Below, piece after piece: positions 4,252 through 24,174 of a DNA stretch of 24,527 nt. The stretch is from contig JAITVV010000019.1 in assembly GCA_031285625.1 (NCBI GenBank), positions 1-24,527 of the forward strand, read 5' to 3'. How positions within the stretch are numbered: position 1 is the first letter of the stretch; each line of letters begins with the position of its first letter. The DNA is from Prevotella sp. Lineage in GTDB: Bacteria; Bacteroidota; Bacteroidia; Bacteroidales; Dysgonomonadaceae. A model generated the notes under the pieces. It had not been told where the DNA came from and did no database searches. It saw nothing but the letters and a program-made list of their open reading frames with translations. Both the position numbers and the translations under genes were made by a program.

Positions 4252-4338
4252 CAAATAGTTAAAATATATTAAAATAGCTATTTATTGTTAGGCAAATGCC
4301 ATGTTCGCGTATATTATATAAAGTAGCATCAGGATGAA

Positions 4339-5337: not shown

Positions 5338-5380
5338 CCTAAATAATCTAAAGATATGGATACATCATAATAACCTACCA

Positions 5381-5414
5381 TAAAAACGGAATAATGTTGA
5401 CGCATTATTCCGTT
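5381..5414 (-). terminator. Intrinsic terminator on the minus strand (hairpin in the fecR-susC spacer)
   Basis: AACGGAATAATG-ttgacg-CATTATTCCGTT (5385-5414). The A-run at 5382-5386 reads as a U-tract on the minus strand. Confidence 0.7.
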
Positions 5415-5497
5415 CACTGCAGATGGTTAGTCTCATAATATACATAAAACGTCATTGAGGAAATATTCTTCAAGAGGGTGTTTTATGTCCAGTCTGC
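5381..5497 (-). ncRNA. Predicted cis-antisense sRNA in the susC leader (DonS-like), about 115 nt; ends approximate
   Basis: Bounded by a consensus minus-strand promoter (5502-5534) and a minus-strand terminator (5381-5414). Confidence 0.55.
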
Positions 5498-5501
5498 ACA
5501 A

Positions 5502-5534
5502 CAAAGATAATAAAATATCAATAAGAATACCAAA
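5502..5534 (-). promoter_or_regulatory. Antisense Bacteroidota housekeeping promoter just upstream of the susC start
   Basis: Minus strand reads TTTG (5534-5531), N21, TATCTTTG (5509-5502), a full match to TTTG-N19-21-TAnnTTTG. Confidence 0.75.
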
Positions 5535-5545
5535 TAGTTAACCAT

Positions 5546-8500: not shown

Positions 8501-9016
8501 GCCCGTTATCCATACAGTTTTGAACTTTCCGCGGACTGGAAAGGATTCGACATACGCGCGTTTTTTCAGGGTGTAGGTAAACGCGACTGGTATCCGGGAG
8601 CTGCCAGTATCTACTTCTGGGGAGTTTACGCACAGCCTTGGACTAACGTTACCACCAAAAATATGGATCATTGGACTGAAGATAATCCGAATGCCTATTT
8701 TCCAAGGGTAAAAGCTTATGCGGCCGAAGACGGCAATATGGAATTGGCTGCCGCGCAGACAAAGTATTTGCAGGATGCCTCTTACCTGCGCCTGAAGAAT
8801 TTAACTATTGGCTATTCTATACCGAAGAATATTTTGAAAAGCCTGAATATTTCTTATTTACGCTTTTATTTCAGTGCGGAGAACCTCTTTACTGTTAGTC
8901 ATCTGGATAAAGGGATTGACTTGGACCCTGAAATTATCGACCGGTATAATGGATTTAACAGTGGAACATATCCAATGCAACGTATATATTCTATCGGGGC
9001 AAATCTGACTTTCTGA
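5546..9016 (+). CDS. susC: SusC/RagA TonB-dependent transducer with N-terminal signalling (STN-like) extension
   Basis: Signal peptide; STN-like LEKSSGYSFFYS; CarboxypepD-like GEPVIGASVTVKGTT; LDEIVVVGYGVQKK; VLKDASAAAIYGARAAFGVVLITT; C-terminal GANLTF. Confidence 0.97.
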   Translation: MKNIKKAIGCLLLLLFVAAYQTSVFAQITVSVKNTKIRQIIQQLEKSSGYSFFYSDDYIDLDKIISVDIKNENIESALNRIFKDTNIKYAVGENKQVILADGKQNNERVRPLVMSQKKITGIIKDEKGEPVIGASVTVKGTTTGTISDIDGSFSLDVPQNATLIISYLGFLPEEIKVGDKTVLDIILEENTQTLDEIVVVGYGVQKKINLSGAVQAVGAEALASRPISNVGSGLQGMVPNLNITVNSGRADDAPILNIRGFTSINDTNGEAFVLVDNMPVTREELARLNPDDIANVSVLKDASAAAIYGARAAFGVVLITTRSAQDGKLQINFSGNYALRDRGIAPGIETDVETVMNMKSAARYPLSAIFSPQQLEYAKQITANPGIDRTIVDPTNPNVWQYYGQTDWFDETHKNTAATYTANLNISKKTDNLSYYVSGGYYKQDGLLKYGNDILNRYNIRSKADVKLTNWWNLGANLTYTHINYDSPSFLDGYFYWQVNRTSSLDVPKNPDGTWTTAGATLLGVLNEGGRRKDRTNETQVSITTQFDIVKDIWKVNADINFRRTNKTRDKENLAVKYRTGPNQPILQTFGERGGSGNNSVNNIAYYSWEDMYSVYNIYTNFTKTFAGKHYFNSMLGYNREFQTRYYYSTVKTGLITPALPEINLSTGDVTATNTRRELALEGIFGRLNYIYDNRYIFEMNGRYDGSSRFLKGDRYGFFPSASVAWSVINEPFFRAPAEKLHMTNLKFRGSYGALGNQALADYYPAIPYMTGSKMSYILDGAQPIMMGQPGVVSPTLTWEKVRTVNFGVDLGLFNKFDLNFDVYSRYTDDMLTQSKELPAVFGATPPKTNAADLKTNGWELSLAYRDKFTVKGSPLNWSVKFMISDSQSKITKYDNPTYNFGKDGNSYYEGKKIGEIWGFTTDGYFKTQEEADALNQREIGTDDVGYVFQVGDIKMKDLDGDKKISFGDNTLEKPGDRKVIGNTSARYPYSFELSADWKGFDIRAFFQGVGKRDWYPGAASIYFWGVYAQPWTNVTTKNMDHWTEDNPNAYFPRVKAYAAEDGNMELAAAQTKYLQDASYLRLKNLTIGYSIPKNILKSLNISYLRFYFSAENLFTVSHLDKGIDLDPEIIDRYNGFNSGTYPMQRIYSIGANLTF

Positions 9017-9046
9017 CACATAATTAATCAAGTAAAATGCATAAAT

Positions 9047-10810
9047 ATGAAAAAGAATATATTAGGTATAATAATATCAGCTTCTGTACTGGTATTCTCC
9101 TCTTGTGAAGATTCCCTGGACAAAGTTCCTAAAACAGAAATTACAGCCAAAAATTATTTCAAAACGGCATCCGATCTGGAAACATATACCAATGGTCTCT
9201 ACCAGGCATTGATATCGGCACCGATTGACGATGTCGGATCAGACAATGTATCCATAAGCACCAATGCCAATACAATGTACACGATGGTAAACAGCGACGG
9301 TATCTCATCGAGCAATATTGGAGGCTGGGATACTAATGATTGGGCTAACTTGCGCAGGATTAATTATATGCTGAACAATATCCATCCTGATCAAATGGAA
9401 ATTTCAGGCGAAGATCTCAGGCATTATGTAGGTATTGCTAAATTCTTCAGAGGCAATTATTATTACAACAAGGTGAAGAATTATTCGTCCGTACCATTCT
9501 ACAATACCGCAATGGATCCGACAAGCGAAGATCTTTACAAGGCATCCGATTCGAGGGTGGTAGTTGTCGATTCGGTTATGCGCGATCTGGAATTTGCAGC
9601 CCGGTATATAAGACCTGTTATCGGCCAGCGTACACGCGTCAGCCAATATGCGGCGCTGGCCCAGCTGGCCAGGGTCAGCTTACATGAAGCGACATTTCGT
9701 AAGTACCATTCAAGTCTGGGGCTAATGGCATCCGCCAACACATATTTTGAAAAAGCAATAACAGTGTGTGAAGAAATTATCGTATCGGAGAAATTCCGGA
9801 TTCATGGGACAAATGCCCATGATTACAGCACGTTATTCTGTTCGTCCAAGTTAAGAGATAATAATGAGATCATTATGTTCATGGAATGCGATCAGACTTT
9901 GGGTAAAGGGAATAATTCCCATACCGTACTGGGCGAATATTGGGGACTCAGCCGTTCGCTGATGGAAACCTATCAAATGAAAGACGGAACTGACTTCAAC
10001 CCTGCTAATCCGGATGGTTCTCTCAAAACATATGTAGAGTTGTTCAAGGACAGGGATCCGCGTTTTGCAGAAACATTTGCATATCCGGGATTCAAGATTT
10101 CCCCTGAAATCGAATCGAGCGCACCTTATCGTCCCAAAATTACCTATGGAGGGTTTATCCAGTTGAAGTACTATCCCAAGGAAACAGCCCAACGCTTTGG
10201 ATGGAATATGAATTATACGTCTTTACCCCTGTTCAGGTATGCGGAGATACTGCTGATCTATGCTGAAGCTAAAGCCGAGTTGGGTACGCTTACCCAAGCC
10301 GATCTGGATAAATCCGTAAATCTGATAAGAGACCGAGCAGGAATGCCGAAAATCGTAATGTCATCAAATATACTGGAAAATATCCGTAGGGAAAGAAGAG
10401 TCGAACTGGCATGTGAAGGATTCCGTCTGGATGACATAAAACGCTGGGCAAAAGGTGAATTGTTAGGGCAAAAACCACAGGGCGTATATATCCATAAATT
10501 CGGAGCATTTGACGTAACGGGCGATGGTATTCCAGATATTGCAATATTACCTGATCCGGGCGATGAATCTTCAATTGCGGATTTACCTGAAAATGTCAGG
10601 GTGTCGCTTGTCAAGGAATATTTAAGGAACGCCAATGGGAAGGAGACAAGTATCTATCTGGACGGGGTTGATGGAAAATCAGGATATATAGAATTTTATA
10701 CGAGCAAAAGCCGGAAATGGACGGATAAATTTTATTTCACTCCAATCCCTAAACGGCAGATGCAATTGAATCCTAACCTGATACAGTCTCCGGGTTGGGA
10801 AAATAACTGA
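9047..10810 (+). CDS. susD: SusD/RagB surface lipoprotein
   Basis: Lipobox VFSS-C; FRYAEILLIYAEA, IRRERRVELACEGFRLDDIKRW and NPNLIQSPGW motifs. Confidence 0.97.
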   Translation: MKKNILGIIISASVLVFSSCEDSLDKVPKTEITAKNYFKTASDLETYTNGLYQALISAPIDDVGSDNVSISTNANTMYTMVNSDGISSSNIGGWDTNDWANLRRINYMLNNIHPDQMEISGEDLRHYVGIAKFFRGNYYYNKVKNYSSVPFYNTAMDPTSEDLYKASDSRVVVVDSVMRDLEFAARYIRPVIGQRTRVSQYAALAQLARVSLHEATFRKYHSSLGLMASANTYFEKAITVCEEIIVSEKFRIHGTNAHDYSTLFCSSKLRDNNEIIMFMECDQTLGKGNNSHTVLGEYWGLSRSLMETYQMKDGTDFNPANPDGSLKTYVELFKDRDPRFAETFAYPGFKISPEIESSAPYRPKITYGGFIQLKYYPKETAQRFGWNMNYTSLPLFRYAEILLIYAEAKAELGTLTQADLDKSVNLIRDRAGMPKIVMSSNILENIRRERRVELACEGFRLDDIKRWAKGELLGQKPQGVYIHKFGAFDVTGDGIPDIAILPDPGDESSIADLPENVRVSLVKEYLRNANGKETSIYLDGVDGKSGYIEFYTSKSRKWTDKFYFTPIPKRQMQLNPNLIQSPGWENN

Positions 10811-10834
10811 CCTGCCTGTCACGGATAAAAGACA

Positions 10835-10880
10835 TACAATACAAAGGTGTTCAAGATCTTTTAAATACCTTTGTATTGTA
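10835..10880 (+). terminator. Intergenic stem-loop after susD (partial terminator or mRNA stabiliser)
   Basis: TACAATACAAAGGT (10835-10848) and ACCTTTGTATTGTA (10867-10880), perfect 14-bp stem. Confidence 0.65.
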
Positions 10881-10903
10881 ATTTATGTACTAAAAAAATA
10901 AAT

Positions 10904-11818
10904 ATGAAGAAATATTTTATGCTAATACTTAGTATTGTACTTTACTTTTCCGGTATCGGTGCACAAACAGCGGACTCAAAACAGAAACGGGCCGGTCATG
11001 TTATTTTGATCGGGCTTGACGGTTGGGGAGCATACAGTGTGCCAAAAGCCGAAATGCCGAATGTAAAAAAGCAGATGGAGCAGGGATGTTACACTTTAAC
11101 GAAACGAAGTGTCTTCCCTTCATCCAGCGCAGCTAATTGGGCATCCATGTTTATGGGCGCAGGCCCGGAGCTTCACGGCTATACCGAATGGGGATCCAAG
11201 ACACCTGAATTTCCATCAAAAATCATTAAAAAGAATAATATATTCCCTACAATTTTCCAGCTTTTACGTGATAATGATCCTAAAGCCGGAATAGCCTGCT
11301 TTTATGAATGGGAGGGTATAAAATTCTTAGTAGATACAATATCCCTGGATTACCATGCCCAAGTTCCGGACTACAATAAACATCCGGATGCCCTATGTGA
11401 AATGAGTGTAAAATATATACTGGGGGAAAAACCTGAGTTATTGGCGGTTTGCTTTGACAATCCCGACCATACAGGGCATGAAGACGGACACGATACTCCC
11501 GCTTATTACTCAAAACTGAGAGAACTTGACGATTATATCGGTAGGATAATAAAAGCAACCGAACAAGCCGGTATCATTGATCAAACCGTTTTTATTATAA
11601 CATCCGATCATGGTGGAATTCAAAAAGGGCATGGAGGTAAAACCGTAGCGGAGATGGAAACTCCTTTCATTATAGCCGGAAAAGGGATTAAGCGAGGAGG
11701 ATGTTTCGAAGAAAGCATGATGCAATTTGACATAGCTTCTACTATTGCATACATCTTCGCATTGAAACAACCGCAGGTTTGGATAGGACGGCCTATGCTC
11801 AATGTTTTTGAGAAATGA
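10904..11818 (+). CDS. Secreted alkaline-phosphatase-superfamily enzyme (type I phosphodiesterase / nucleotide pyrophosphatase-like)
   Basis: Start reassigned to ATG 10904 (signal peptide MKKYFMLIL...). Metal motifs IGLDGWG, PDHTGH and TSDHGG; nucleophile region PSSSAANWASM. Confidence 0.85.
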   Translation: MKKYFMLILSIVLYFSGIGAQTADSKQKRAGHVILIGLDGWGAYSVPKAEMPNVKKQMEQGCYTLTKRSVFPSSSAANWASMFMGAGPELHGYTEWGSKTPEFPSKIIKKNNIFPTIFQLLRDNDPKAGIACFYEWEGIKFLVDTISLDYHAQVPDYNKHPDALCEMSVKYILGEKPELLAVCFDNPDHTGHEDGHDTPAYYSKLRELDDYIGRIIKATEQAGIIDQTVFIITSDHGGIQKGHGGKTVAEMETPFIIAGKGIKRGGCFEESMMQFDIASTIAYIFALKQPQVWIGRPMLNVFEK

Positions 11819-11883
11819 TGTAATAAATGATGATACAAAAACAAAAGAAAGCATACGGGCTATACGAACAAAAAATTATACGC

Positions 11884-14355
11884 ATGAATAAAAAATTTAT
11901 AATAGGACTTTTATTATTTATATCGGTCGGATTATCGGCCTCTCATCGGGGAAGGGTTTTCGTCGATGATAACAAGAATGGGTTGTACGATAAAAATGAA
12001 AGGCTCTTGAACGGGATTATGGTTACAGACGGATTAAATGTCGTAAAAACGAATTCGTCGGGAGAGTTTGAACTTCCCGGACATTCCCGGGAGCGCTTTA
12101 TTACAGTCACTACCCCATCCGGATATAAAACCGGTAGGACTCATTATATCCGGATAAATAGCGATATAGATTCCTATGATTTTGCCTTAAACGTATGGAA
12201 TACGCGTGTAGCGAAAGATGGTAGCCATAAGTTTGTCCAGATCTCCGACACCGAAATATTTAATACATCCGATCAGGAAAGATGGGTACAAGATATTCGT
12301 GATTATGCGAAAAATGAAGAGATAGCCTTTACAATACATACAGGTGATATTTGTTATGAAGATGGGTTGCGGAAGCATATAAAGCTTATGAACAGTAATG
12401 AGTTGGGTTGCCCCATGTATTATATAATCGGAAATCATGATCTGGTCAAGGGTGATTATGGAGAACAATTTTTCGAGAATATATATGGGCCTGTCTGGTT
12501 CTCCTTTGATTACGGTAATGTCCACTATATAGTCACCCCAATGCTTCAGGGAGATTACAGCCCAAGCTACAAAGAGGCTGATGTATACGAATGGCTGAAA
12601 AATGATTTGGCCCATTTAAGTGCAGGTACTCCGGTAATATGTTTCAACCATGATTTGAAATCCTATACGGACGAATTTGTCTTTAAGAAGAGCGATAATG
12701 AAAAACTGATACTTAGTGATTACAATCTGAAAGCCTGGATATACGGGCACTGGCACAACCATTTCGTACGCCGACAGGATAAAGTAAAAACCATCTCAAC
12801 TGCCACTCCCGACAAGGGTGGTATAGACCATTCGCCTGCGGCATTCAGAGTTATGTCGGTAGATACGAAAGGAAATGTGAGTACACAGTTGAGATATACT
12901 TATATCAAAAACAGTATCGTAGTAGCATCGATAGGAAACGGGGCAACTCCGGTTAGCGGCAAGGGACGAATCCCTTTATACGTAAATGCTTATAATTCGG
13001 TATCACCTATTGTAATGATCAATTATACTTTAAGCGATGAAAACAGAACAGTCAAGTCCGGTCAGGATTTAAAACAAAATTCGGACTGGACTTGGTATGC
13101 CGAAATCGATATTCCTGCGCAGAACTTCAATAAACAGTTGTTTATCGAAGTGTCATCCCTGAGTGGAAATGGCGAAATAGCTAAGATCCGGAAACCTTTC
13201 GTACATATCCCGGATCAAAAGCCGAACGTATGTATAGGCAATAACTGGACTACTTTATTAGGCAACCCGGAGCATAATGCTTACGGTACTGATTCGCTGA
13301 ATAAGCCAAAGCTGGAGTGGGTGAACAATGTTGGGGCTAATATATTCATGTCTTCGCCGTTAATATATGATAATACAATCTATGTAGCTTCTGTCGATGA
13401 AGACTTGGAGGGAAAATGTGGCCTGCATGCCTTGGGCATCAGGTATGGCGAACGGAAGTGGTTTTTCAGGACGCGAAACTCGATTAAGAATACAATAGCT
13501 GTTGAAGGTGATAATGTTTTTGCGCAAGATGCGGAAGGATATTTATATGCCGTTGATACGAAAACCGGGAAATTGTCATGGGAAAAAAAGTTGAAAATAA
13601 AGGGGCTACCTGTACTGGATAATGGATTGGCTGTGAGAAACGGATTGGTCTATGCCGGTACGGGAAAAGGGTTCGCAGCTTATGACAGTAAAACCGGGGA
13701 ACTAAAATGGACCAATACGGATTGGGAACAGGGAGAAGGAACAACAAGTACTGTTGCGGTAAATGACGATGTGGCTATAAACAGTGCTCAATGGCGTGGA
13801 ATGTATGCCAATGATGCTAAAACCGGTAAATTACTTTGGTCTCAGGGTAAAAACGGTATATCAAGCAGGGGAGCAAGCCCTGCTTTGCACGATGGATTAG
13901 CATACTTTATTTCTTCCGAATCTTTGTTTATCCTAGACATCCAATCCGGGAAAATCATATTGTCCAAAAAACTACCATATAGCGTTGATGTGACATCTAC
14001 CCCGCTTGTAACGGATAAGCTAATAATTTTTGGAACTGCCGGCAACGGCTTGGTTGCATTAGACCGGGAGAACTATGAAGAAAAGTGGAAGGTTAATACC
14101 ATGGAATCCCTGATCTATACAGCTCCTTATACACGCCATCCTGTAACAAGTATTGAAACCAGTCCTGTACGTTTTGGGAACCATGTTATTTTCGGAGCTT
14201 CCGATGGATATATTTATGCTATAAATATGGATAATGGAAAGGTCGACTGGAAGCATGGAACAGGAGCTCCTATTCTCAATTCTGTGGCGGTTTCCGGAAA
14301 TTCATTTTTTGCGGCAGATTTCGGAGGTAATGTATATGCATTTTCCTGTGAATAA
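11884..14355 (+). CDS. Secreted calcineurin-like metallophosphoesterase fused to a PQQ/BamB-like beta-propeller
   Basis: Start reassigned to ATG 11884 (signal peptide). N-terminal GRVFVDDNKNG domain; ISDTE, HTGD, IGNHD and GHWH motifs; C-terminal repeats such as YAVDTKTGKLSW and YAINMDNGKVDW. Confidence 0.88.
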   Translation: MNKKFIIGLLLFISVGLSASHRGRVFVDDNKNGLYDKNERLLNGIMVTDGLNVVKTNSSGEFELPGHSRERFITVTTPSGYKTGRTHYIRINSDIDSYDFALNVWNTRVAKDGSHKFVQISDTEIFNTSDQERWVQDIRDYAKNEEIAFTIHTGDICYEDGLRKHIKLMNSNELGCPMYYIIGNHDLVKGDYGEQFFENIYGPVWFSFDYGNVHYIVTPMLQGDYSPSYKEADVYEWLKNDLAHLSAGTPVICFNHDLKSYTDEFVFKKSDNEKLILSDYNLKAWIYGHWHNHFVRRQDKVKTISTATPDKGGIDHSPAAFRVMSVDTKGNVSTQLRYTYIKNSIVVASIGNGATPVSGKGRIPLYVNAYNSVSPIVMINYTLSDENRTVKSGQDLKQNSDWTWYAEIDIPAQNFNKQLFIEVSSLSGNGEIAKIRKPFVHIPDQKPNVCIGNNWTTLLGNPEHNAYGTDSLNKPKLEWVNNVGANIFMSSPLIYDNTIYVASVDEDLEGKCGLHALGIRYGERKWFFRTRNSIKNTIAVEGDNVFAQDAEGYLYAVDTKTGKLSWEKKLKIKGLPVLDNGLAVRNGLVYAGTGKGFAAYDSKTGELKWTNTDWEQGEGTTSTVAVNDDVAINSAQWRGMYANDAKTGKLLWSQGKNGISSRGASPALHDGLAYFISSESLFILDIQSGKIILSKKLPYSVDVTSTPLVTDKLIIFGTAGNGLVALDRENYEEKWKVNTMESLIYTAPYTRHPVTSIETSPVRFGNHVIFGASDGYIYAINMDNGKVDWKHGTGAPILNSVAVSGNSFFAADFGGNVYAFSCE

Positions 14356-14567
14356 CAAGTTATTAAAATTCGAAAACACCTTTTTTTCAGTAGATTAAAA
14401 TATAATATTTCATAAGTTACTGATAATCGTCTAAACTAAACTATTATAAATGAGTCCTAAATTTTGAAATCTGATACCTTTTGTTTGCTCCAACCAATAT
14501 TTGGTAGCTTCATTAACTGTTAGGTTATACCATTCAATACTGTAAATATTTTTATTTCACGTTATTA

Positions 14568-14850
14568 AATATTAAAATCTATTTATAGATAAAAAATGGA
14601 TACAGGTTCCTTAAAAACGGAGGAGTTGGCAGGGATGGTTTTCAGGCTGTTAAAAGAGCATCGCCGGCTGGCGGATTTTGAAACGAAAAGGGATGTGGAC
14701 AGATACGGGTACAGCAACCTGGTAGCCACATCCTTCCCTACGGTAACAGACGCTATTGCTTTCCTCAGGCAGTACAGGTCTGGACCTCCATCATAGCCGC
14801 TTTACCCAATATGCCAATGCAACGATGTTCGAGATCGCACTGAAATTAAT
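14568..14850 (+). repeat. Diverged direct repeat, copy 2
   Basis: Aligns with 1230-1528, with a 6-nt and an 11-nt deletion in the coding part. Confidence 0.95.
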
Positions 14851-14857
14851 CAAATAG
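14596..14857 (+). pseudogene. Frameshifted paralogue of the 91-aa ORF at 1257-1532
   Basis: An 11-nt deletion near 14775 (GATGAACCGGA missing) causes an early stop at 14796. The original tail LDLHHSRFTQYANATMFEIALKLIK* survives in another frame, ending at 14857. Confidence 0.85.
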
Positions 14858-14973
14858 TGTTTCTGAAAACATCCTGCCATATATGGTTTTATTAATGCGG
14901 CCTGCAAATTGCTTATGGATCTCGCCTCAAAAGGACAATGAGTACGTCTATATTTGGTTATTACTTATGGCCT

Positions 14974-15285
14974 ATTCAGGCTTTCTTTACTGGTAACCTG
15001 GGATTATTACCGACCGGCAGAAGACAAACACTAATTCCAACATAAGGCTATTGGAAGTTCCCAAGCGTATTATAGAAAAGTACAGGAGAATGGTAAAGGA
15101 TAAGTTCCGGGCAACAGTAACTGCAATACGAAGCTGAAAAAATAGGAGTACTATGTGGAATCAAGACTAAGCTGACATATCACCTCGCCTGATACAGCGG
15201 CTACCCTTATTTTTTATCGCAGGGGATATCTATTGAAACGGTAAGCAGGTTATTGGGGCATACCAATATCAAGACTATCCAATGC
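14974..15285 (+). pseudogene. C-terminal remnant of a Bacteroidales tyrosine integrase
   Basis: Translation across frameshifts gives IITDRQKTNTNSNIRLLEVPKRIIEKY, VPGNSNCNTKLK, GVLCGIKTKLTYHLA* and FLSQGISIETVSRLLGHTNIKTIQ. The HxxR Arg codon is a stop and the catalytic Tyr is missing. Confidence 0.9.
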
Positions 15286-15475
15286 ATTTTTCTATAAATT
15301 ACGGGCAGGCCACTACCTCCAACTATCAGCCGAAGGACTGTTTGTTTATCCTTTTTAAGTCCCCCCTCCTACTTTCCCTGATTACTTCGTTCACTTTTTC
15401 CTGTTCTCTTGCATTAATCACTATTGAGAAAGAGCTTCCTAAGGCAAGTCCCGGTTATGAAAAGGTATCAATTCT

Positions 15476-16564
15476 TTAAACCTTCCCCCTTGTCGATCCC
15501 AAAAAATACCGGTAACTGCGATAGGACCTGAAGCCGGCTTCAATGATTAATTCAATCTCACTCAAGCCATCATATTTGGACAGGCTGCGCATCCGTTCCA
15601 CTTCCTGCATCCGCAATGTGTTAATATACCGGCTAAAATTCATTCCGTATTCCTTATTGACAAATTCGGACATGTACTGGCGATTAGTACAGAATGGAAG
15701 CAGTAAATCTGTTATTTTTAGTTCAGGATCCAAATACGGTTTGTACTTATGCATATAGGTTTCAAAGGCAGTACGGTTCAGTCTTAATACCTCTTTTCCT
15801 TTACTTTCTCCGACAGGAGATGAAACTATTATATAATTTCCTCGCAGTAAATTGTAGCAAAGAACAGGATATAGTCCAATCGGCAAAGCCCGCCATAAAA
15901 AGGGAATAATATAATCTGCCAGTATATAACTGCCTGAAAACCGGGTCATCAGGAAAAACGAAACCAGTGACAGTACTATATAAAACAGGTGGAAGATCAA
16001 ATAAAGCGATACCACGGTACTTCGCCCATAATCCACAGAATGTTTGTCTGTTTTTCGGCGGAAACGGTTTAGTCTTCTTATTCCCATCCCGGTATATAAG
16101 GAAGTGAATACAATGCTGAATATAGCGGGGATAAACCGGGGAACAAACAGATATTGAAAATATTCTGGCTTCTTATTGCTATATTGTGTCCTATATTCCA
16201 TCCACAACAAGATTACCACTACTACAAGAGTTATTACAATGGGGAAAATATAGTGAAAGATAGAAAAGCGTTCTTTGATTCCCGTACCTGTCAGTAAAAA
16301 GACCAGATAATAGCCGCTAACCTGTGAAAATACCAGACTTATGTAAAATAGAGGATAAATACTGGCAAATACTGCCGGGGAGGAGACAACAAGCCATCTG
16401 CATACATTCATGCTATAATAAACGATCATGGTATATACTGGCTTGTTGTCTCTCTGCCTCTCTTCTTCAAGAAAGCAGTAACCAAGCGAGAGTAAAAGGC
16501 ATAAGAATGCCGTTAGTACCGGAAGCAGGTAACTGATTAGCTGAACAGTCTCACTCGCCACCAT
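15476..16564 (-). CDS. Membrane-bound AraC-family regulator (multi-TM sensor plus C-terminal HTH)
   Basis: About seven hydrophobic segments, then KPYLDPELKITDL...TNRQYMSEFVNKEYGMNFSRYINTLR...AGFRSYRSY. Confidence 0.88.
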   Translation of the reverse strand: MVASETVQLISYLLPVLTAFLCLLLSLGYCFLEEERQRDNKPVYTMIVYYSMNVCRWLVVSSPAVFASIYPLFYISLVFSQVSGYYLVFLLTGTGIKERFSIFHYIFPIVITLVVVVILLWMEYRTQYSNKKPEYFQYLFVPRFIPAIFSIVFTSLYTGMGIRRLNRFRRKTDKHSVDYGRSTVVSLYLIFHLFYIVLSLVSFFLMTRFSGSYILADYIIPFLWRALPIGLYPVLCYNLLRGNYIIVSSPVGESKGKEVLRLNRTAFETYMHKYKPYLDPELKITDLLLPFCTNRQYMSEFVNKEYGMNFSRYINTLRMQEVERMRSLSKYDGLSEIELIIEAGFRSYRSYRYFLGSTRGKV

Positions 16565-17714
16565 CTTTTTTCAAATTTATATTGTAGCCTTTCTTTGTCC
16601 AGAGTCGCTTTTGACGTTCCGCTTTGCAGCGCTGATAACTTCTAAGGCTTCCAAACCCGGACTGGAGAATAAGGTCAGCAGTTTTTTTACCGGCATTAGC
16701 CGGTAATGAGAGTAAGCGTTCCATTTCCTCCAGACGCAAAGCATTCAAATATTGACGAAAATTCATATTATAGGTTTCCCTGATAAACGCGGAAAAAGTA
16801 AACTGGTCAATACCCAACTCTTCAACCAGGGCGCCGGAGGAAATCCGAGGATTGGCATATAATTTGTTCTTTACAAAAAGAGTTTCAAAGTCTCGGCGTT
16901 TTAATACGAAACTTTCGGACTGCGGTATCAAGGTCGGTATATTTTCAGCCTCTTCTCCCTGCACAGCTACGTTTACCCCCCTCTTTTTACCGGGATCTTT
17001 AAATATTAGGTTACATGGGCATATCAGGTTATATATAAGGATGATAAATTGGGCTGAAACCAGTGTTGACCCCAGAAATTCCCATGGCATATATTTTCTG
17101 GCTGGCAGGAAAATAGGGATAGCTGTATCGAATAAAAGTAAAAAAGACAAAAAAGTCAATACTATTATCCAACGTGTAAGTACAGGCTTACTTTCAGGGG
17201 TTACAGATTGTAATTCCAGATTACGCTTAAACAACCTGTAGCAAGACGACATAAAGTAAAATAAGGATGATAGAAAATAACATGTAAGAAGCCATGTGGT
17301 AATCTGTTCTTCCGGATTGACCGGGGAAATATGAAAAATGAGGACGAAGACTCCAGAAAGAATGCCTAGTATTGCTGCAGGGAGGAAATGAAAGGACAGG
17401 AACCCGGGAACAGATTGCCTGTAAATTAGGCGACATATAAAAAGGTATAATGCCGCGGGAGCGCTCAGCACAAAGAAAACATGGACAGGAAGAATTACAT
17501 AAAATATGCTCCTGTCAAAGAAATACAGGAATATGCCTGTCCACATCCCCAGCATCAGAGAAAAATAAAGCATCAGAGACCGTTTTTGATTAGCCTCTTC
17601 ACTGGTTATACTGCCCCGGTAGGAAAGCAGTAACATTAGAAGTCCGGCTATAATAAATAGAGATGGCATGCAAAGTAAACTTAAATACATAATTTGCCGA
17701 ATCCAGTTATCCAT
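16551..17714 (-). CDS. Membrane-bound AraC-family regulator (multi-TM sensor plus C-terminal HTH)
   Basis: Multiple TM segments, then KLYANPRI...FSAFIRETYNMNFRQYLNALR...SGFGSLRSYQR; overlaps the next gene by 14 nt. Confidence 0.85.
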   Translation of the reverse strand: MDNWIRQIMYLSLLCMPSLFIIAGLLMLLLSYRGSITSEEANQKRSLMLYFSLMLGMWTGIFLYFFDRSIFYVILPVHVFFVLSAPAALYLFICRLIYRQSVPGFLSFHFLPAAILGILSGVFVLIFHISPVNPEEQITTWLLTCYFLSSLFYFMSSCYRLFKRNLELQSVTPESKPVLTRWIIVLTFLSFLLLFDTAIPIFLPARKYMPWEFLGSTLVSAQFIILIYNLICPCNLIFKDPGKKRGVNVAVQGEEAENIPTLIPQSESFVLKRRDFETLFVKNKLYANPRISSGALVEELGIDQFTFSAFIRETYNMNFRQYLNALRLEEMERLLSLPANAGKKTADLILQSGFGSLRSYQRCKAERQKRLWTKKGYNINLKKDGGE

Positions 17715-18107
17715 GACACAAATATATTATCAAAACAGTAAACCAAGATAGACAATAATCTGCTTTTAGCTGTTTCATCTTTACAAAATACCCAATCGCA
17801 GGTAATTAAATACTAAACTCTAAAATCAGGATTAGGATATAAATATCCTCATTCAGCATAAATTCACGTTGACAAATCGTAAAATAAGCCAGCGCCATAA
17901 TTATTTTTTTAATTATTATGACACCGTCAAGGGTGCAATAATTGCAATATTCTTAAGATAGCATATATCGCAGTATGCCTGTGGGACAAGACATTATACC
18001 TCACCTGTATTTTCGGGGAAACTTGACGCTATATCTTTTTATGGTTTTACGCAGCATTATGTAGGCCAAATGCTTTATTTGCATTGTTTTAAAATAGTAA
18101 TAAAGAA

Positions 18108-19769
18108 ATGGAGAGGGAGAATATTTTACATAATTTATGTGACCGTATTAAGGGATCAAGAATATATTCGGCTTCATCCGGAGAACGGTTATATATTCCA
18201 TATTATGTTCATCATCCATATATAATTAAAGTGCGGGCGTTTCTTGAAGTTATCAATACCAAGGTACAACTTTTTGTGAGGGTATCTTCAGATATATATA
18301 CCCAAGCTTGGTGCAAGCAAGAATCTTTTCGGATAAAAGCCATATTAAATGAGCAACTATCTGAAGTTATTTGTAGTTGTGAACGGGAGCCTTATATTGG
18401 TTTACCTCACATGTCATTGCTGGATAATAATATCCAGCCTGTATTGTCGGGCTCGACATCTGAGCAAGCAAAAGCCATACGTTTTCTATGTCAGCGGAAA
18501 GTGGCTTTACTTATTTCGGAAGACCGGGGCGAACGATGGACCATCGCTCTACGAATAGCTGAGAGCCGGCACACAGCAAAAAAAATCGATAGGCTGCTGG
18601 TCTTTTTACCTGGAATCCATATTGAAAAGTTCAGGGAAGCATATGTGAAGCAGAAAGTAAAGATATATCCGATAATCATAGCCGGCATCGAAAGACTCAG
18701 CCATAATTTTTATTTGTATAAAAAGCTGCTTGATTATACGGGGCGGTCAACCATGATTATCGCAGACGACTGCCATCTGTTTAAATCTCCTGATTCCCTC
18801 CGCTCAAAACGCATAATGGTTATTGCGCGACAATGTAATTATAAATTATTGATGACTGCTTCATTGGTTACCAACAATATTCATGACGTATATATGCCTT
18901 ACAATATACTGGACGAACGGATTCTTTGCTATTATCGCTGGGAATACTTTTCAAAAATACATATTATATATGGGGGAGTAGATGGCTCTCAAATATTAGG
19001 ATACAAGAATATAGCCTATCTGATCAGCAAATTAGAACCTTACACATATAGCATAAACCGAATAAAACCTTGTTCGGCCGAAGTACAATCTATGGAGATG
19101 CAAATATATTGTTGTGAATTGACAACCATGCAAAAATATTACTACGCAAATGAAAAGCAGGAGTTGCTTTCGTTGATTGAAGAGGACAGGCTGAGTGTGT
19201 ATGATATTTTCCGCATTTTTATCCGTATGCAAAAGATTGTCTGCGGATATCCTTTGGATAAAGACAAGTATGATAACAATAAAATATATGAAACTAACAA
19301 AAAAGAACTGCTAAAAGAAAATTTGCCTGCCGGTGTATGTGTTATTTTTTGCAAATTCCGTTTTGAGATCGATCTGTTATTGTTCCTTCTTGGTGAAAAG
19401 AATTGCAGGGTTATAAATAATAAATGTAAGGTTGGTATTTCTAAGAATGAACAGGAAAATGCCTTTCTGCAAGAGAAATACTTCCTTTCAACCCTTTATT
19501 CTCCGGAATCAAAATTACAGGGAGTTAAAGATTTTACTCATATCCTTTTTTTTAGCCTATCTTTCTGTTATACCGATTATTTACAGTGTTTCTCCTACAT
19601 TTCCGATAACGGAATGGGGCAAAAGGTATCTTTTGCCTGCTTTGCAACTAATTCCGGAATAGATCACCTTATCATCCAGAACCTGAAACGGAAGGGAATG
19701 CTGGCTACTGAATTACGGGATTCCCTGGCAAACAAATCCCGATTAGCCCGCCTTGTTGAAATTTTATAA
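18108..19769 (+). CDS. SNF2/SF2 helicase-like protein with degenerate catalytic motifs
   Basis: SNF2 motif order is recognisable (EQAKAI, LLVFLP, IIADDCHLFK, LLMTASLVTNNIHDVY, ELTTMQKYYY, VIFCKF, IDHLIIQNLKRK), but there is no GKT Walker A and no QxxxRxxRxGQ motif. Confidence 0.75.
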   Translation: MERENILHNLCDRIKGSRIYSASSGERLYIPYYVHHPYIIKVRAFLEVINTKVQLFVRVSSDIYTQAWCKQESFRIKAILNEQLSEVICSCEREPYIGLPHMSLLDNNIQPVLSGSTSEQAKAIRFLCQRKVALLISEDRGERWTIALRIAESRHTAKKIDRLLVFLPGIHIEKFREAYVKQKVKIYPIIIAGIERLSHNFYLYKKLLDYTGRSTMIIADDCHLFKSPDSLRSKRIMVIARQCNYKLLMTASLVTNNIHDVYMPYNILDERILCYYRWEYFSKIHIIYGGVDGSQILGYKNIAYLISKLEPYTYSINRIKPCSAEVQSMEMQIYCCELTTMQKYYYANEKQELLSLIEEDRLSVYDIFRIFIRMQKIVCGYPLDKDKYDNNKIYETNKKELLKENLPAGVCVIFCKFRFEIDLLLFLLGEKNCRVINNKCKVGISKNEQENAFLQEKYFLSTLYSPESKLQGVKDFTHILFFSLSFCYTDYLQCFSYISDNGMGQKVSFACFATNSGIDHLIIQNLKRKGMLATELRDSLANKSRLARLVEIL

Positions 19770-19823
19770 GATGAATCGGCTTGTTCCGGTACGGAATTAC
19801 AATAGTTAAATACTTGAATAAAA

Positions 19824-20219
19824 ATGACAGATATACAACAGCGTATTGAAAAAATATGGGGTACAGACAATCGTCTCCACCAATTAATAGGCCCTTTTGT
19901 TATGAATCCCGATATAATCCGCATAAATAGAGGATATCCTTTTAAAAATACTGAGGATCATTTATGGTATATTGCCTTGAAAAATAAGAATATGGTAATG
20001 GGATTCCTTGCGGTTTGTAATGGGCGTATTTGTAATGATTTCACATGGCAGGATTGTGAGGTGCTGGAGTTTCTACTGAAGAAAGTCCTTGATGATATGG
20101 AAAAGGAAATGCTTGTTTCTTTCATCGCTGAAGATTATGAAGTGGGCTTGTTGGAAGAATTAGGCTTCCAACAGGAACGGAGAACTAAACGATATGTCAA
20201 GATGGTCAAGGTAACTTAA
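19824..20219 (+). CDS. Hypothetical protein, possible GNAT-like fold
   Basis: WYIALKNKNMVMGFLAV beta-hairpin and C-terminal LLEELGF resemble the GNAT pattern. No clear acetyl-CoA-binding Q/RxxGxG/A loop. Confidence 0.55.
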   Translation: MTDIQQRIEKIWGTDNRLHQLIGPFVMNPDIIRINRGYPFKNTEDHLWYIALKNKNMVMGFLAVCNGRICNDFTWQDCEVLEFLLKKVLDDMEKEMLVSFIAEDYEVGLLEELGFQQERRTKRYVKMVKVT

Positions 20220-20251
20220 TGGAAATAAAGTAGAAAAAATAACATATACTG

Positions 20252-21550
20252 ATGCAAGCTGAAAATGTATATCAAAAAGCGATGGGACGGATTGAATATA
20301 TCTTCTCCAGATTCGATAATATCTGCGTTTCCTTCTCAGGGGGAAAGGATAGTGGCGTAATGCTAAATCTGGTATTGGATTATATGCGTTCACACAAGAT
20401 CAAAAGAAAAATAGCGGTACTGCATATCGATGTGGAAGCGTCATACAGGCGGACGATGGACTTTGTTGAAAAAATATATCTCGACAATCTTGATCTGATC
20501 GATCCTTATTGGATATGTTTGCCGATGATTACGACAAACGCCGTGTCGATGTACGAACCCTACTGGATATTCTGGGATAGGGACAAAAAGGAAAAATGGG
20601 TCAGGCCAATGCCTGACCATCCCTTTATTATCCATCAGGGAAACTGCCCTTTTGGGTTTTACCACTTGAATATGACCTTCGAGGAATTCGTTTCTTATTT
20701 CGGAGATTGGCTGAATGGATACAGGAAAGCGGAAAAAACAGCATGCTTGGTAGGAATCCGCTCAAACGAAAGTTTAAATCGTTACCGGGCAGTTTCACGA
20801 AAGGATAAAGCCATGTTTGAAGATAAAGAATATTCTACCCGTATTTCAGAAAATACGTATAATTTCTATCCGGTTTATGACTGGAAGGTAGACGATATTT
20901 GGATTTATAACGGTAAGTTCGATAAACCGTACAATACAATTTACGATTTATTCTATAAGGCGGGAATTTCCCTTTCAAAAATGAGGATATGCGAGCCTTA
21001 CGGGGATGAGCAGAAAGCAGGGTTAAATTTGTTCAAAGTGCTGGAACCCGAAACCTGGATCCGGCTCGTGGACAGGGTCAGCGGAGCTAATTTCGGGAAT
21101 ATATACTGTGGCACCAAAGCTTTGGGGGTACGTCAAATATCCTTACCTGAAGGACATACCTGGAGAAAGTATTGTAAGTTCCTGCTGGATTCTTTACCTG
21201 AAGAAACCAGGAATATATATACAGCTAAATTTCTCCGTTTTATCCGTTATTGGAATAAGACCGGCTGTCCTGTTGCAGATGGGGATATACAAAGACTTAA
21301 CCCGGACACGATTATCAATACATATGAGTTTAGCAGACGGGGTAAATCCGACAAGTATGTGGTAAAATTCCGAATCATTCCTGATGCCTTGCCCGGATTG
21401 GATAATAAAACAGATTTTCTTTCATGGAAAAGAATGTGCATGGCTATTTTAAAAAACGACATAACATGCCATACCCTTTCTTTCTCTATGACCAAAAGGC
21501 AAATATTACATCAACAGCAACTACTTGAAAAGTATAAGAATATGTTATGA
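20252..21550 (+). CDS. ibrA: PAPS-reductase-like PP-loop / DUF3440 protein (IbrA/YbdN family)
   Basis: VSFSGGKDS PP-loop; YWICLP; LVGIRSNESLNRYR; YPVYDWKVDDIW; MRICEPYG; RVSGANFG; LPEGHTW; SWKRMCMAILKND. Confidence 0.88.
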   Translation: MQAENVYQKAMGRIEYIFSRFDNICVSFSGGKDSGVMLNLVLDYMRSHKIKRKIAVLHIDVEASYRRTMDFVEKIYLDNLDLIDPYWICLPMITTNAVSMYEPYWIFWDRDKKEKWVRPMPDHPFIIHQGNCPFGFYHLNMTFEEFVSYFGDWLNGYRKAEKTACLVGIRSNESLNRYRAVSRKDKAMFEDKEYSTRISENTYNFYPVYDWKVDDIWIYNGKFDKPYNTIYDLFYKAGISLSKMRICEPYGDEQKAGLNLFKVLEPETWIRLVDRVSGANFGNIYCGTKALGVRQISLPEGHTWRKYCKFLLDSLPEETRNIYTAKFLRFIRYWNKTGCPVADGDIQRLNPDTIINTYEFSRRGKSDKYVVKFRIIPDALPGLDNKTDFLSWKRMCMAILKNDITCHTLSFSMTKRQILHQQQLLEKYKNML

Positions 21551-22218
21551 AAGAGAATATAAATCTCCCGGATGAGATCATCCGGGCATTGACCGGTGAA
21601 CTATGCGACAGGATAAAGGAGATACCGGATACCGACTCCCGGATAGACACTTTGAATTATATACGTATGATGTTACATCAAGTCAGCCCGTTAAAACATC
21701 ATCCCGTTGATTTCGTTGCTTGGGAAAGATCCGTAATAATAGAAGCAAATGATTACAATCCTAACAGTGTTGCCCCGCCGGAAATGCGGTTATTGGTTAC
21801 CTCTATCGAAGATGATGGCTATACAATGCCGGTAGTAACATGTCCTGAAGAATGTATATTCCGTATCGTAGATGGCTTTCACCGTAGACAAGCGGAAAAA
21901 AAATCGAAGAATATATCCATCAGTACATATGGACGGCTGCCGGTTACTTTTATCAGGGAATCGCGACGAGGCCTCGACGACCGGATGGCATCTACAGTTC
22001 GTCATAACAGGGCGAGAGGTGCGCATAATATTGACTTAATGTCAAATATTGTCAGGGAATTAATATTCATGGGAAGATCTCTTCAATGGATATCCAGGCA
22101 TGTGGGAATGGATATGGATGAAATCCTCCGGTTAAAGCAACTGACGGGACTGGCTGCTTTGTTTGCCGGAAAGGAGTTTTCTTATAGCGAAAATATGGAT
22201 TCTTTTAAATCCCCTTAA
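21547..22218 (+). CDS. ibrB: ParB/sulfiredoxin-domain protein (IbrB/YbdM family)
   Basis: HPVDFVAW; ANDYNPNSVAPPEMRLL; DGYTMPVV; IVDGFHR; RMASTVRHNRARG; HTH-like GMDMDEILRLKQLTGL; ATGA overlap with the upstream gene. Confidence 0.88.
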   Translation: MKENINLPDEIIRALTGELCDRIKEIPDTDSRIDTLNYIRMMLHQVSPLKHHPVDFVAWERSVIIEANDYNPNSVAPPEMRLLVTSIEDDGYTMPVVTCPEECIFRIVDGFHRRQAEKKSKNISISTYGRLPVTFIRESRRGLDDRMASTVRHNRARGAHNIDLMSNIVRELIFMGRSLQWISRHVGMDMDEILRLKQLTGLAALFAGKEFSYSENMDSFKSP

Positions 22219-22268
22219 TATTTTAATAATAAATCGGTTACCCCTCGAACTGAAGAATTAAAAGAAAG

Positions 22269-22472
22269 ATGAATCAGTACAAATTTATATTACTGGGAGA
22301 AACAGTGGAAACGATTGTTCAGGTCAATGCTACTGATTACCTAAAGGCCTCAATAAAAATAATAGGTTGGATTACATCCAATCCTCAGGAATTAGAGAAC
22401 ATGAGATATCACGGGATTACTTTAATTAAAAGAGGGCGGCCGTTGATTTTTATAAAATCATATTCAGAATAA
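22269..22472 (+). CDS. Small hypothetical protein (67 aa)
   Basis: ATG in A-rich context, 50 nt after the ibrB-like stop, same strand, fills the gap. Confidence 0.5.
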   Translation: MNQYKFILLGETVETIVQVNATDYLKASIKIIGWITSNPQELENMRYHGITLIKRGRPLIFIKSYSE

Positions 22473-22614
22473 ATATTTTAAGTAGCTCACTCTTTTTCCA
22501 TCCGAAGCTTCCCTGGCAGTTTTGGCTGCCTGTACGTTTTGGCGGACAGCCCTGATAGCGGCAAGATACTTATAAAAATAAATAACCTCTATTACGAATT
22601 AAAAATTTTAAAAG

Positions 22615-24174
22615 ATGAGAGAACTAAACAAAAAGACGATGTTAGTAACATTTATTATACTTATGTTACTGACTATATTTACACAGACTTCGTATGCACA
22701 GGTAACAATCGGTGCAGGAGAGCCACCCCAGGAATTTTCTATCCTTGAAATTTCGGCAAAATATACAAAGGGCGGCCTTGACTTGCCCCAGCTGTCGACA
22801 CACGAACGGGACTCGATAACGGCTACACCGGCTTTCAAGAAAGAAATGGCAGGTAAAGCCTGTGGATTAACCTTGTTTAATACCGATAAGAAGGAAGTAC
22901 AATACTGGGACGGGGCACAATGGGTAACAGCCGGAAAAAACTCACCGTGGCATGTATCCCCGGTTTCCGGTGCTTCCTCAAATCCTGCAGACCATCAGAC
23001 AGCTACCGGTTATAACCAAGATATCTACAGGACAGGCCATGTTACCATAGGCAACCATACAAAGAAAATAGATCCGGCAGCCATACTCAATGTCGTAGCC
23101 AGTGATAAAGGAGTGCTGCTACCCAGGGTAGCATTAATAAGTTCTACCGACATGACCACCATTGCGAATCCTACCACGGGCTTGCTGGCCTATAATACGG
23201 GGACGGCAGGACTCAAGGCCGAAGGCTATGTATATTGGAACGGGAATGAATGGAGAAAATTCGGTAACAGCTCCCTGTCCCCGGGAACCATAGGCAGCAT
23301 AACCTGTAACGGTGTCTCACTGACTCCCAGTATCTATAAAGCCGGGATACCTTATGAAGGAACTATGATAATCCCATATACAGGCGGTAACGGCGGAATG
23401 TATCCCGAACAGACAACAAGCAAGGTAAACGGGCTTACGGCAACTTTAGTTTCAGGGAATTTCGAGGTAGGAGCGGGCAATCTTGCTTATACTGTAAAAG
23501 GTATTCCGACAAAAACAACTCCCGAGACTACGACATTTACCGTAAATGTCGGCGGTAAAACCTGCCATGCGGTAATCGGGACAGGAGACGGGATTGCACC
23601 GGGTGATTTGGTTTATTATGCCACGGATGAATTTGACGCTGCAGTCAGCGGTGTTGATCTGGGAACTTTCAATTATGCAGGCGACCCGAATAATGGATAT
23701 TATGCTACGGGATGGTTGAGCTCTTATATAAAAAATCTCCCTATAATAGGGGGAAAACTCAGGCTGGACGGCTATTTTAATAAATCTTCCTCGAAAGGAA
23801 AGGGAACGGTCAGCTTCAATCCCCGGCTGGTTAATATTACCGATAAAAATGTAAAGTTCTGGTTCAGCGCCATGACTACCGTTAACAATTACAATGCTTC
23901 GAATATTGTTTTAGCACCCGGCAAATGGGTGAATCTTGATGACGGTATTTATCTCAACCTCGGAATGAACAGTACGGTAACCTCCCCGACAAATCCTAAC
24001 ACCCATAATAAATATGGAGTAACAGTAAGCGGGGATCAATCGGAAGTTGTTACATTGGACTTGTCCCTGGATAGTAAATGGTATAGGGTTTACTATTATC
24101 CCATAATTGACAATAAGGATGGTTCTACCACTCCTAAGAGAAAGATATATATGTCTATACAAAGGCTATATTGA
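22615..24174 (+). CDS. Secreted adhesin/fibre-like surface protein
   Basis: Signal peptide ending TSYA|QVTIG; two related modules (ILEI..KGGLDLPQL..GLTLFNT..YWDGAQW and ILNV..KGVLLPRVAL..GLLAYNT..YWNGNEW); Gly/Thr-rich beta-rich C-terminal region. Confidence 0.65.
   Translation: MRELNKKTMLVTFIILMLLTIFTQTSYAQVTIGAGEPPQEFSILEISAKYTKGGLDLPQLSTHERDSITATPAFKKEMAGKACGLTLFNTDKKEVQYWDGAQWVTAGKNSPWHVSPVSGASSNPADHQTATGYNQDIYRTGHVTIGNHTKKIDPAAILNVVASDKGVLLPRVALISSTDMTTIANPTTGLLAYNTGTAGLKAEGYVYWNGNEWRKFGNSSLSPGTIGSITCNGVSLTPSIYKAGIPYEGTMIIPYTGGNGGMYPEQTTSKVNGLTATLVSGNFEVGAGNLAYTVKGIPTKTTPETTTFTVNVGGKTCHAVIGTGDGIAPGDLVYYATDEFDAAVSGVDLGTFNYAGDPNNGYYATGWLSSYIKNLPIIGGKLRLDGYFNKSSSKGKGTVSFNPRLVNITDKNVKFWFSAMTTVNNYNASNIVLAPGKWVNLDDGIYLNLGMNSTVTSPTNPNTHNKYGVTVSGDQSEVVTLDLSLDSKWYRVYYYPIIDNKDGSTTPKRKIYMSIQRLY

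Follow-up and report, generated by a model that had tools for sequence, protein, structure and literature searches.

The 24,527-nucleotide contig JAITVV010000019.1 of a Prevotella sp. genome (GCA_031285625.1; 4.8 Mb in 96 contigs) carries, on its forward strand, a compact run of genes that encode a protein derived from SNF2-family ATPases, a small protein of the GNAT fold and a pair of proteins related to IbrA and IbrB of Escherichia coli. The window analysed here is the entire 24.5-kb contig, and therefore no further flank exists. The gene of the SNF2-family pseudo-ATPase (18108-19769, 553 residues) is followed after 54 nucleotides by that of the GNAT-fold protein (19824-20219, 131 residues) and, 32 nucleotides further on, by the IbrA-type gene (20252-21550, 432 residues), the stop codon of which overlaps the start of the IbrB-type gene (21547-22218, 223 residues) by four nucleotides, ATGA. 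Judged by its recurrence in related loci, the conserved unit at this position is the set of these four genes, 18108-22218, and it is smaller than the one first proposed.

The limits of this cassette emerge from a search with an IbrA-like query, in which one genome per species was considered. It returned 18 loci from Dysgonomonas, from metagenome-assembled genomes (MAGs) of Prevotella/Prevotellaceae, from a Bacteroides MAG and from unclassified Bacteroidetes, 15 of which have enough flank to be judged. The SNF2-like, GNAT-like, IbrA and IbrB genes occur in the order of the window in 14 of these 15 loci; the exception, L015, has no GNAT-like gene and a shorter SNF2. When the flanking open reading frames (ORFs) are clustered, the neighbour families differ in nearly every locus, and DNA similarity between loci is confined within the cassette (18147-22187), while the IbrA proteins are 65-79% identical across loci. 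In one Prevotellaceae MAG (L011:1808-3889), an SNF2 with active motifs and its GNAT neighbour are read as a single ORF of 693 residues, and a 691-residue representative from a protein-database search (P0039) spans the whole SNF2 profile. The proposal of the initial annotation that the SNF2-like, GNAT-like, IbrA and IbrB genes belong together is thus borne out by the shared order and by the ORF that joins the first two.

The surroundings of the cassette vary. A TraG/TraD-type conjugative coupling protein is encoded 1 kb downstream of it in L001, and in L005 integrases lie on both sides, together with a Gp49-like gene and an S24 peptidase gene. In L014 (5402-11299) a full cassette is followed by a second copy of the GNAT-like and IbrA genes, a tandem partial duplication, with an integrase 1 kb beyond. 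Four loci (L001, L004, L016 and L018) belong to Dysgonomonas termitidis, which has at least two full cassettes in one genome in addition to two fragments at contig ends. Across the phylum, DUF3440, the domain that marks IbrA, is present in 7 of 401 sampled genomes; out of the four that were inspected, one has GNAT, IbrA and IbrB, another SNF2, IbrA and IbrB, and two have IbrA and IbrB only.

The IbrA-type protein is matched by both Pfam domains under which it had been annotated, DUF3440 (1.8e-53, 181.4 bits against a cut-off of 25) and PAPS_reduct (E 6.7e-15), and phrog_2302 aligns with it from end to end (1.6e-100). As an enzyme of the PP-loop ATP pyrophosphatase type it has an intact SGGKDS motif (VSFSGGKDSG), the residues of which recur in 95% or more of 86 unique family members. 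The IbrB-type protein has no Pfam match even at E 10, the ParB_N model of Pfam being blind to it, and is recognised by phrog_2159, a "ParB-like partition protein" family, at 1.4e-57. In an AlphaFold (AF2) model with a predicted local distance difference test score (pLDDT) of 79.3, Foldseek finds ParB (7bm8), KorB (8qa9), Spo0J and Noc, with probability 1.00 over 150-170 columns. These alignments span both the N-domain and the helix-turn-helix (HTH) of the protein, while sulfiredoxin (Srx) matches the N-domain alone, so that the ParB/Srx label given earlier fits the model. The layout consists of a ParB/Srx-type N-domain of the NTP-pocket kind with the motif DGFHRR, followed by a C-terminal HTH, and across 20 IbrB sequences D109, G110, H112 and R113 as well as R152, H153, N154, R155, A156, R157 and G158 are invariant. 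Both DGFHRR and RHNRARG are kept in the IbrB of the window.

A protein with PAPS_reduct and DUF3440 domains beside a ParB-like protein, usually translationally coupled to it, is an arrangement shared with IbrA/IbrB of E. coli (ECOR-9 island), with the K-12 paralogues YbdN/YbdM and with the families phrog_2302/phrog_2159. The window differs from E. coli in adding dedicated SNF2-like and GNAT-like partners, both of which are catalytically degenerate. Sandt and colleagues are said to have found in 2002 that E. coli IbrAB is needed for the expression of the prophage Eib proteins, whence the name of the pair. In K-12, YbdN is described as a PAPS reductase/DUF3440 protein and YbdM as a protein with a ParB-like nuclease domain, and ybdNM is reported to be repressed by YbdO (PMC9068703).

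The SNF2-like protein is composed of an N-terminal domain of about 110 residues and two RecA-like lobes. Pfam detects SNF2-rel_dom (PF00176) in it at 30 bits against a cut-off of 24.9, over the N-lobe only, and phrog_62 matches at 6.4e-21, whereas Helicase_C goes undetected in the Pfam scan. Motifs I, II, III and VI are all degenerate: EDRGERWT stands where active relatives have DTGTGKSK, DDCH replaces DESH, MTASL replaces MTGTP, and motif VI, GRIDRQGQ in active relatives, is lost, with SYISDNGMGQ in its place. Since Walker A, motif II and motif VI are replaced and Helicase_C is not found, the protein is classed as an SNF2-derived pseudo-ATPase, in agreement with its first description as a degenerate SNF2. 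The N-terminal domain (18108-18440, residues 1-110) is common to the dead and active forms of Bacteroidales and absent from most viral partners. An Atlas search with the N-terminal 112 residues returned viral "SNF2 N-terminal" fragments, XPB_DRD and HARP, all below 0.9.

The 131-residue protein has no Pfam match, and no GNAT family appears even at E 10. In its AF2 model (pLDDT 88.6) it adopts a GNAT fold, for which the top Foldseek matches are ElaA, 1xeb and GCN5, with a template modelling score of up to 0.73 and a probability of 1.00. The two active homologues that were scanned against Pfam, those of L013 and L010, pass the threshold of Acetyltransf_1 (36.4 and 32.9 bits against a cut-off of 20.7). 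Fold and relatives together uphold the "GNAT-like" label of the initial annotation. The protein carries a deletion of seven residues where the L010 and L013 homologues have the motif-A-like sequence YRKNGIHKKL; the segment that holds GNAT motif A, the acetyl-CoA loop (R/Q-x-x-G-x-G/A), is missing from it. A complex prediction of the SNF2-like and 131-residue proteins scored 0.00, "no answer", which is evidence for neither side.

The state of the Walker A motif divides the SNF2 family. G(T/S)GK(T/S) is kept in all 28 complete viral SNF2 partners and in L010-L013 and L015, and it is lost in 11 of the 16 genome loci, namely the window, L001-L009 and L014. On a maximum-likelihood tree these 11 dead forms make up one clade with a support of 1.0, sister to the active L010-L013, which implies a single loss event, and the SNF2 of the window nests inside the family of phage partners. 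Each of the 11 dead loci also has the seven-residue deletion at motif A in its GNAT. Tree and alignments thus point to one ancestral event in the clade of the window, in which SNF2 would have lost motifs I, II, III and VI and GNAT its acetyl-CoA loop.

Both proteins have been kept after that event. The SNF2 frames of the dead clade are full length in 11 of 11 loci, at identities of 39-50% to the protein of the window, and new residues have become conserved where the active site used to be: R/K-W occupies the position of Walker A in 10 of the 11, and 10 of the 11 have C-H at motif II. Ratios of nonsynonymous to synonymous substitution (dN/dS) were taken from six pairs within the dead clade in which synonymous divergence is unsaturated. 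They amount to 0.12-0.17 for the SNF2-like protein in all six pairs, 0.10-0.27 for the GNAT-like protein, 0.04-0.09 for IbrA and 0.04-0.17 for IbrB, with 0.057 for the active SNF2 pair L010/L012 as a comparison. Because of the low ratios, the full-length frames and the newly conserved residues at the former SNF2 active site, the SNF2-like and GNAT-like proteins are read as pseudoenzymes maintained by purifying selection and not as the products of decaying genes.

When 1.84 billion representatives were searched with a profile, 16,389 SNF2 relatives came up at E <=0.001. Among the best 150 of them, which were inspected, 117 match the pattern G.GK[ST], 14 have no N-lobe in the aligned piece and 19 fail the strict pattern. 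Seven of these 19 are without the Walker lysine, four of them in the clade of the window and the other three being P0054, P0057 and P0072. The loci that encode P0054 and P0072 are found in a Lentisphaeria MAG (L108:4956-8203), with the order dead SNF2-IbrA-IbrB, and in an assembly of an uncultured bacterium (L109:2675-6350), with the order IbrA-IbrB-dead SNF2. Since the dead SNF2 adjoins IbrA/IbrB in both, the ATPase of SNF2 has been lost beside IbrAB independently in at least one further lineage.

The IbrA/IbrB pair itself is widespread in phages. Relatives of IbrA were found in 223 records of a phage collection, with phages of Flavobacterium, Mycobacterium and Streptococcus the commonest and the IbrA of the window less than 60% identical to each, and at least 470 IMG/VR contigs encode one. 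In the best 80 of these at least 470 contigs, for which neighbourhoods were counted, IbrB is adjacent to IbrA in 76, an SNF2 of the same family lies near IbrA in 29 (27 of 63 among those with at least 1.5 kb upstream) and a GNAT-like gene is present in five. It separates SNF2 from IbrA in one of the five, matching the window, and IbrA from IbrB in the other four. From the viral and genome neighbourhood counts, IbrA and IbrB are taken as the core of the module, and SNF2 and GNAT as optional, dedicated accessories. In the Streptococcus thermophilus phage CHPC1230 the pair is annotated as IbrA/IbrB and placed after the lysin, in the Lactobacillus phage CR28 it follows a "helicase ATP-binding" gene, and in a Pseudoalteromonas phage it precedes the portal gene by about 1.3 kb. 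IbrA/IbrB have also been noted in environmental and archaeal viruses (PMC4490671, PMC8813620). In L013, where all four genes are in active form, a gpA-type large terminase is encoded 1.2 kb downstream of the cassette and the phage-only families phrog_5809 and phrog_18108 lie upstream of it, which places this copy in a prophage. These relationships indicate that the cassette is the Bacteroidales branch of a widespread phage-borne IbrA/IbrB module and that its origin is a phage. As IbrA and IbrB are a named and common phage pair, the earlier term "undescribed system" was too strong for the core.

Among the closest known counterparts is the phage trio of SNF2, IbrA and IbrB, seen in CR28 and in many IMG/VR contigs, which shares with the window an SNF2-family gene immediately next to IbrA/IbrB. 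The two differ in that the phage SNF2 keeps Walker A (28 of 28) and mostly has no N-terminal domain of about 110 residues, whereas the SNF2 of the window includes this domain and no longer has the ATPase motifs. An SNF2-derived module without ATP-binding signatures has a precedent in DndH, the inactive SWI2/SNF2-type domain of which has lost those signatures, is proposed to bind DNA and belongs to a conflict system (PMC10853773). DndH, as described there, keeps the C-terminal lobe only, within a very large multidomain protein, while the SNF2-like protein of the window stands alone, keeps both lobes and is encoded beside IbrAB. A search of the full-text literature, with supplements outside its scope, returned no paper that gives IbrA/IbrB a reaction or describes an SNF2 or GNAT partner, and the terms PAPS and Ibr are absent from a survey of polyvalent proteins (PMC5512222).

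Taken together, the locus is best read as a four-gene, phage-derived IbrAB cassette in which SNF2 and GNAT have become pseudoenzymes, to which the adjacent genes do not belong and which would act through a DNA-directed mechanism; this joint reading is given a probability of about 0.6. In the proposed mechanism, the HTH of IbrB would bind DNA under the control of a nucleotide, in the manner of ParB and KorB, and IbrB would position IbrA. IbrA would spend ATP at its PP-loop, adenylating and then substituting a group on DNA or on a DNA-bound substrate. The SNF2 motor of phages would move the IbrAB machinery along DNA, and in the host-resident clade motor and GNAT would serve as DNA-binding or scaffolding subunits only.

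Several observations weigh against this reading. C89 of the window is the only cysteine conserved in at least 95% of the 86 unique IbrA family members, which counts against a DndC-like insertion of sulfur by an iron-sulfur cluster and means that no specific reaction can be attached to "DNA modification". A sequence search of the PDB with IbrA and IbrB returned no solved relative beyond marginal PP-loop, Noc and serine-kinase matches. With a dN/dS roughly double that of IbrA (0.04-0.09), the dead SNF2 is under relaxed constraint. The presumed physical association of the four proteins is drawn from synteny and from one fused ORF, which comes from a MAG and could be an assembly error. Finally, L006 and L007 also have members of the family of the fibre-like protein beside the cassette, and a loose link to the surface protein is therefore possible.

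An unlikely alternative would make the cassette a modification-based anti-phage defence or self-marking system of the Dnd, Ssp or BREX-type-4 kind, in which IbrA would correspond to DndC/SspD and work on the backbone of DNA, IbrB to DndB and SNF2 to DrmD. Proteins of the ParB superfamily are paired with DNA-modifying enzymes both in phosphorothioation (DndB-DndC) and in 7-deazaguanine modification (DpdA-DpdB), and in Dnd the modifying enzyme is a PP-loop ATPase (PMC10853773, PMC12839542). The pairing of IbrB with IbrA parallels DndB-DndC in this respect, and PADLOC returns matches to DndC (6.2e-10), BrxP (1.2e-5; 21.8 bits over 39 residues) and DrmD (E 0.0036 over 59 residues), all of them below threshold. 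The cassette is moreover patchy and accessory, as its presence in few of the sampled genomes attests, and the coupling protein of L001 and the integrases of L005 lie beside it as they might beside a defence module. However, the equivalog model of DndC (TIGR03183) scores 35.7 bits on IbrA, far below its cut-off of 290.4, and the single conserved cysteine does not amount to the DndC-like multi-cysteine set. In a Pfam scan of 23 ORFs of the window, no cysteine desulfurase (DndA), DndD/E, Dpd partner or nuclease effector was found, nor PglZ, BrxC, DrmA/B or a similar gene. The module is also carried mainly by phages, and counter-defence or phage DNA metabolism accounts for this no less well than host defence does.

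A purely KorB-like regulator is the main alternative to the DNA-directed model, and an improbable one. It would control transcription without any DNA chemistry, IbrB acting as a nucleotide-gated clamp or activator of the KorB/ParB kind for genes of the resident element, IbrA making or consuming the nucleotide ligand of IbrB, and the dead SNF2 and GNAT serving as adaptor subunits. The match of the IbrB model to KorB and ParB clamps across both domains agrees with such a role, as do the public phage records of CHPC1230 and CR28, in which the pair is annotated as a "co-activator of prophage gene expression", and its position at the boundaries of phage modules, after the lysin in both of these phages and before the terminase in L013. 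Against it, the flanks differ between loci and therefore offer no conserved target nearby, and IbrA is large and, at 65-79% identity, highly conserved, which would be unusual for a mere supplier of a ligand.

The initial annotation had drawn the system wider, as an operon linked to two membrane AraC sensors and to an adhesin-like surface protein. Its account of the arrangement stands: all eight ORFs and their spacings agree with the re-read sequence. The IbrB-type gene is followed on the same strand, after 50 nucleotides, by a 67-residue ORF (22269-22472) and, 142 nucleotides later, by the gene of a secreted fibre-like, probably PTL_trimer-related protein (22615-24174, 519 residues), which brings the co-oriented genes to six, and divergent from them on the reverse strand are two AraC-like genes (15476-16564, 362 residues; 16551-17714, 387 residues) that overlap by 14 nucleotides. 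Both AraC-like proteins have about 5-6 hydrophobic segments in the N-terminal half and a C-terminal HTH_18 match below the Pfam cut-off (22.7 and 29.7 bits against 33.6). The 519-residue protein has a hydrophobic N-terminus that ends in ...SYAQ. It has no match in the copy of Pfam that was used, which does not include PF26696 (PTL_trimer), and an Atlas feature search places it, with a score of 0.94 and 219 shared features, nearest to clusters that carry PF26696 in 97-100% of their members. Ten paralogues occur in the genome, including that of the window, the nine others being located on contigs C75, C55, C12, C37, C23 (three in a row), C28 and C71. By its sequence, the protein is one of a multigene family whose secreted members have a predicted phage-tail-like trimerisation region.

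That cassette, AraC sensors and fibre-like protein form one system, in which the IbrAB-type proteins would switch on the surface protein by analogy with E. coli, is very improbable. The six co-oriented genes with short gaps, divergent from the AraC genes, speak for it, as does the KorB-like DNA-binding architecture of IbrB, and so do two loci: L006 of Dysgonomonas hofstadii, which has homologues of the AraC twins and two genes of the 519-residue family beside the cassette, and L007, which has one PTL_trimer-like gene and two AraC genes there. However, homologues of the twins are found in L006 only (1 of 15 loci), members of the fibre-like family in two of the 15 and relatives of the 67-residue ORF in none, and all three are absent from 84 further loci (80 viral and 4 genome loci). 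In L006 (1375-6025) the twins are directly divergent from the fibre-like genes, with the cassette downstream, which suggests that twins and fibre-like genes form a unit of their own. The paralogue of the window is the only one that shares a contig with the single DUF3440 gene of the genome, the other nine lying elsewhere, and a terminator-like hairpin (22515-22530) precedes the 519-residue gene. The 67-residue ORF is an orphan which, among 5.8 billion clustered proteins, finds only itself; it lies outside the cassette and is unlikely to be a conserved gene. Around pairs of DUF3440 and ParB-like proteins, the co-occurrence that had been foreseen thus stood for the SNF2-like and GNAT-like genes (14 of 15) and fell for the AraC (1 of 15) and fibre-like (2 of 15) ones, and the comparison places AraC twins, 67-residue ORF and fibre-like protein as neighbours of the cassette, not as components of it.

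That the SNF2-like and GNAT-like genes are functionless, decaying remnants and that IbrAB alone matters, as the lost catalytic motifs and the many loci with IbrAB and neither partner might suggest, is scarcely credible in view of 11 of 11 full-length frames at identities of only 39-50%, of dN/dS values of 0.12-0.17 and 0.10-0.27, and of the new active-site residues conserved in 10 of 11 loci.

The Pfam scan of the ORFs of the window matched no integrase, transfer or phage structural family, and the earlier placement of the genes on a mobile element therefore finds no support in the window. Flanking repeats that could mark an insertion were not found, a boundary of integrase or att-type features was considered and rejected, as none was seen in the window, and Rfam and tRNA scans of it gave no matches. 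A scan for sigma-70-type promoters was uninformative (21 sites against 23.7 expected). The Bacteroidetes -7 promoter motif TANNTTTG occurs at 24 sites against 25.9 expected, with zero sites on the forward strand in 17715-18107, between the second AraC-like gene and the cassette.

Upstream of the AraC pair lie genes for a Panacea-domain antitoxin, ECF (extracytoplasmic function) sigma and FecR, SusC/SusD, a phosphodiesterase and a metallophosphatase-PQQ protein, which is a typical polysaccharide-utilisation-type locus of Bacteroidota. The part at 3700-14355 comprises the ECF sigma factor, the FecR anti-sigma factor, a SusC-like TonB receptor with an STN domain and SusD, and it also holds a type I phosphodiesterase and a metallophosphatase-PQQ beta-propeller protein; it looks like a utilisation locus under trans-envelope signalling, perhaps for a phosphorylated substrate. 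The Panacea-domain (SocA-like) antitoxin gene (1871-2434; PF13274, 2.5e-23) overlaps by four nucleotides an ORF of 185 residues (2431-2988) that has no Pfam match, and the two may be a toxin-antitoxin pair (1871-2988). Some 1.1 kb (14356-15475) separate the metallophosphatase gene from the first AraC-like gene and contain no ORF longer than 66 residues and no Rfam or tRNA match.

IbrA/IbrB (YbdN/YbdM) are among the commonest accessory gene pairs of phages without an assigned reaction, and the cassette reveals partners that travel with them, a dedicated SNF2 and a dedicated GNAT. Their sequences suggest that in the host-resident copies the catalysis of these partners is dispensable and the proteins are still retained. 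A false lead is removed as well, since the adjacent regulators and surface protein fall outside the system, and natural active (L010-L013) and dead (clade of the window) versions are available for dissecting the roles of motor and acetyltransferase.

A broader reading is put forward only tentatively and is rather doubtful: when the module leaves a phage for a chromosome or a conjugative element, the motor and the acetyltransferase would repeatedly become pseudoenzymes, while IbrA and IbrB stay intact. The conversion would have taken place once in Bacteroidales, and that of SNF2 independently in at least one other lineage. If this were true, the four proteins would be a DNA-bound complex with two modes. 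The phage mode would be mobile and driven by ATP, acting along replicating phage DNA, and the host mode would be static, repurposed as a DNA mark, as a regulator, or as a sensor or decoy in the conflict between phage and host.

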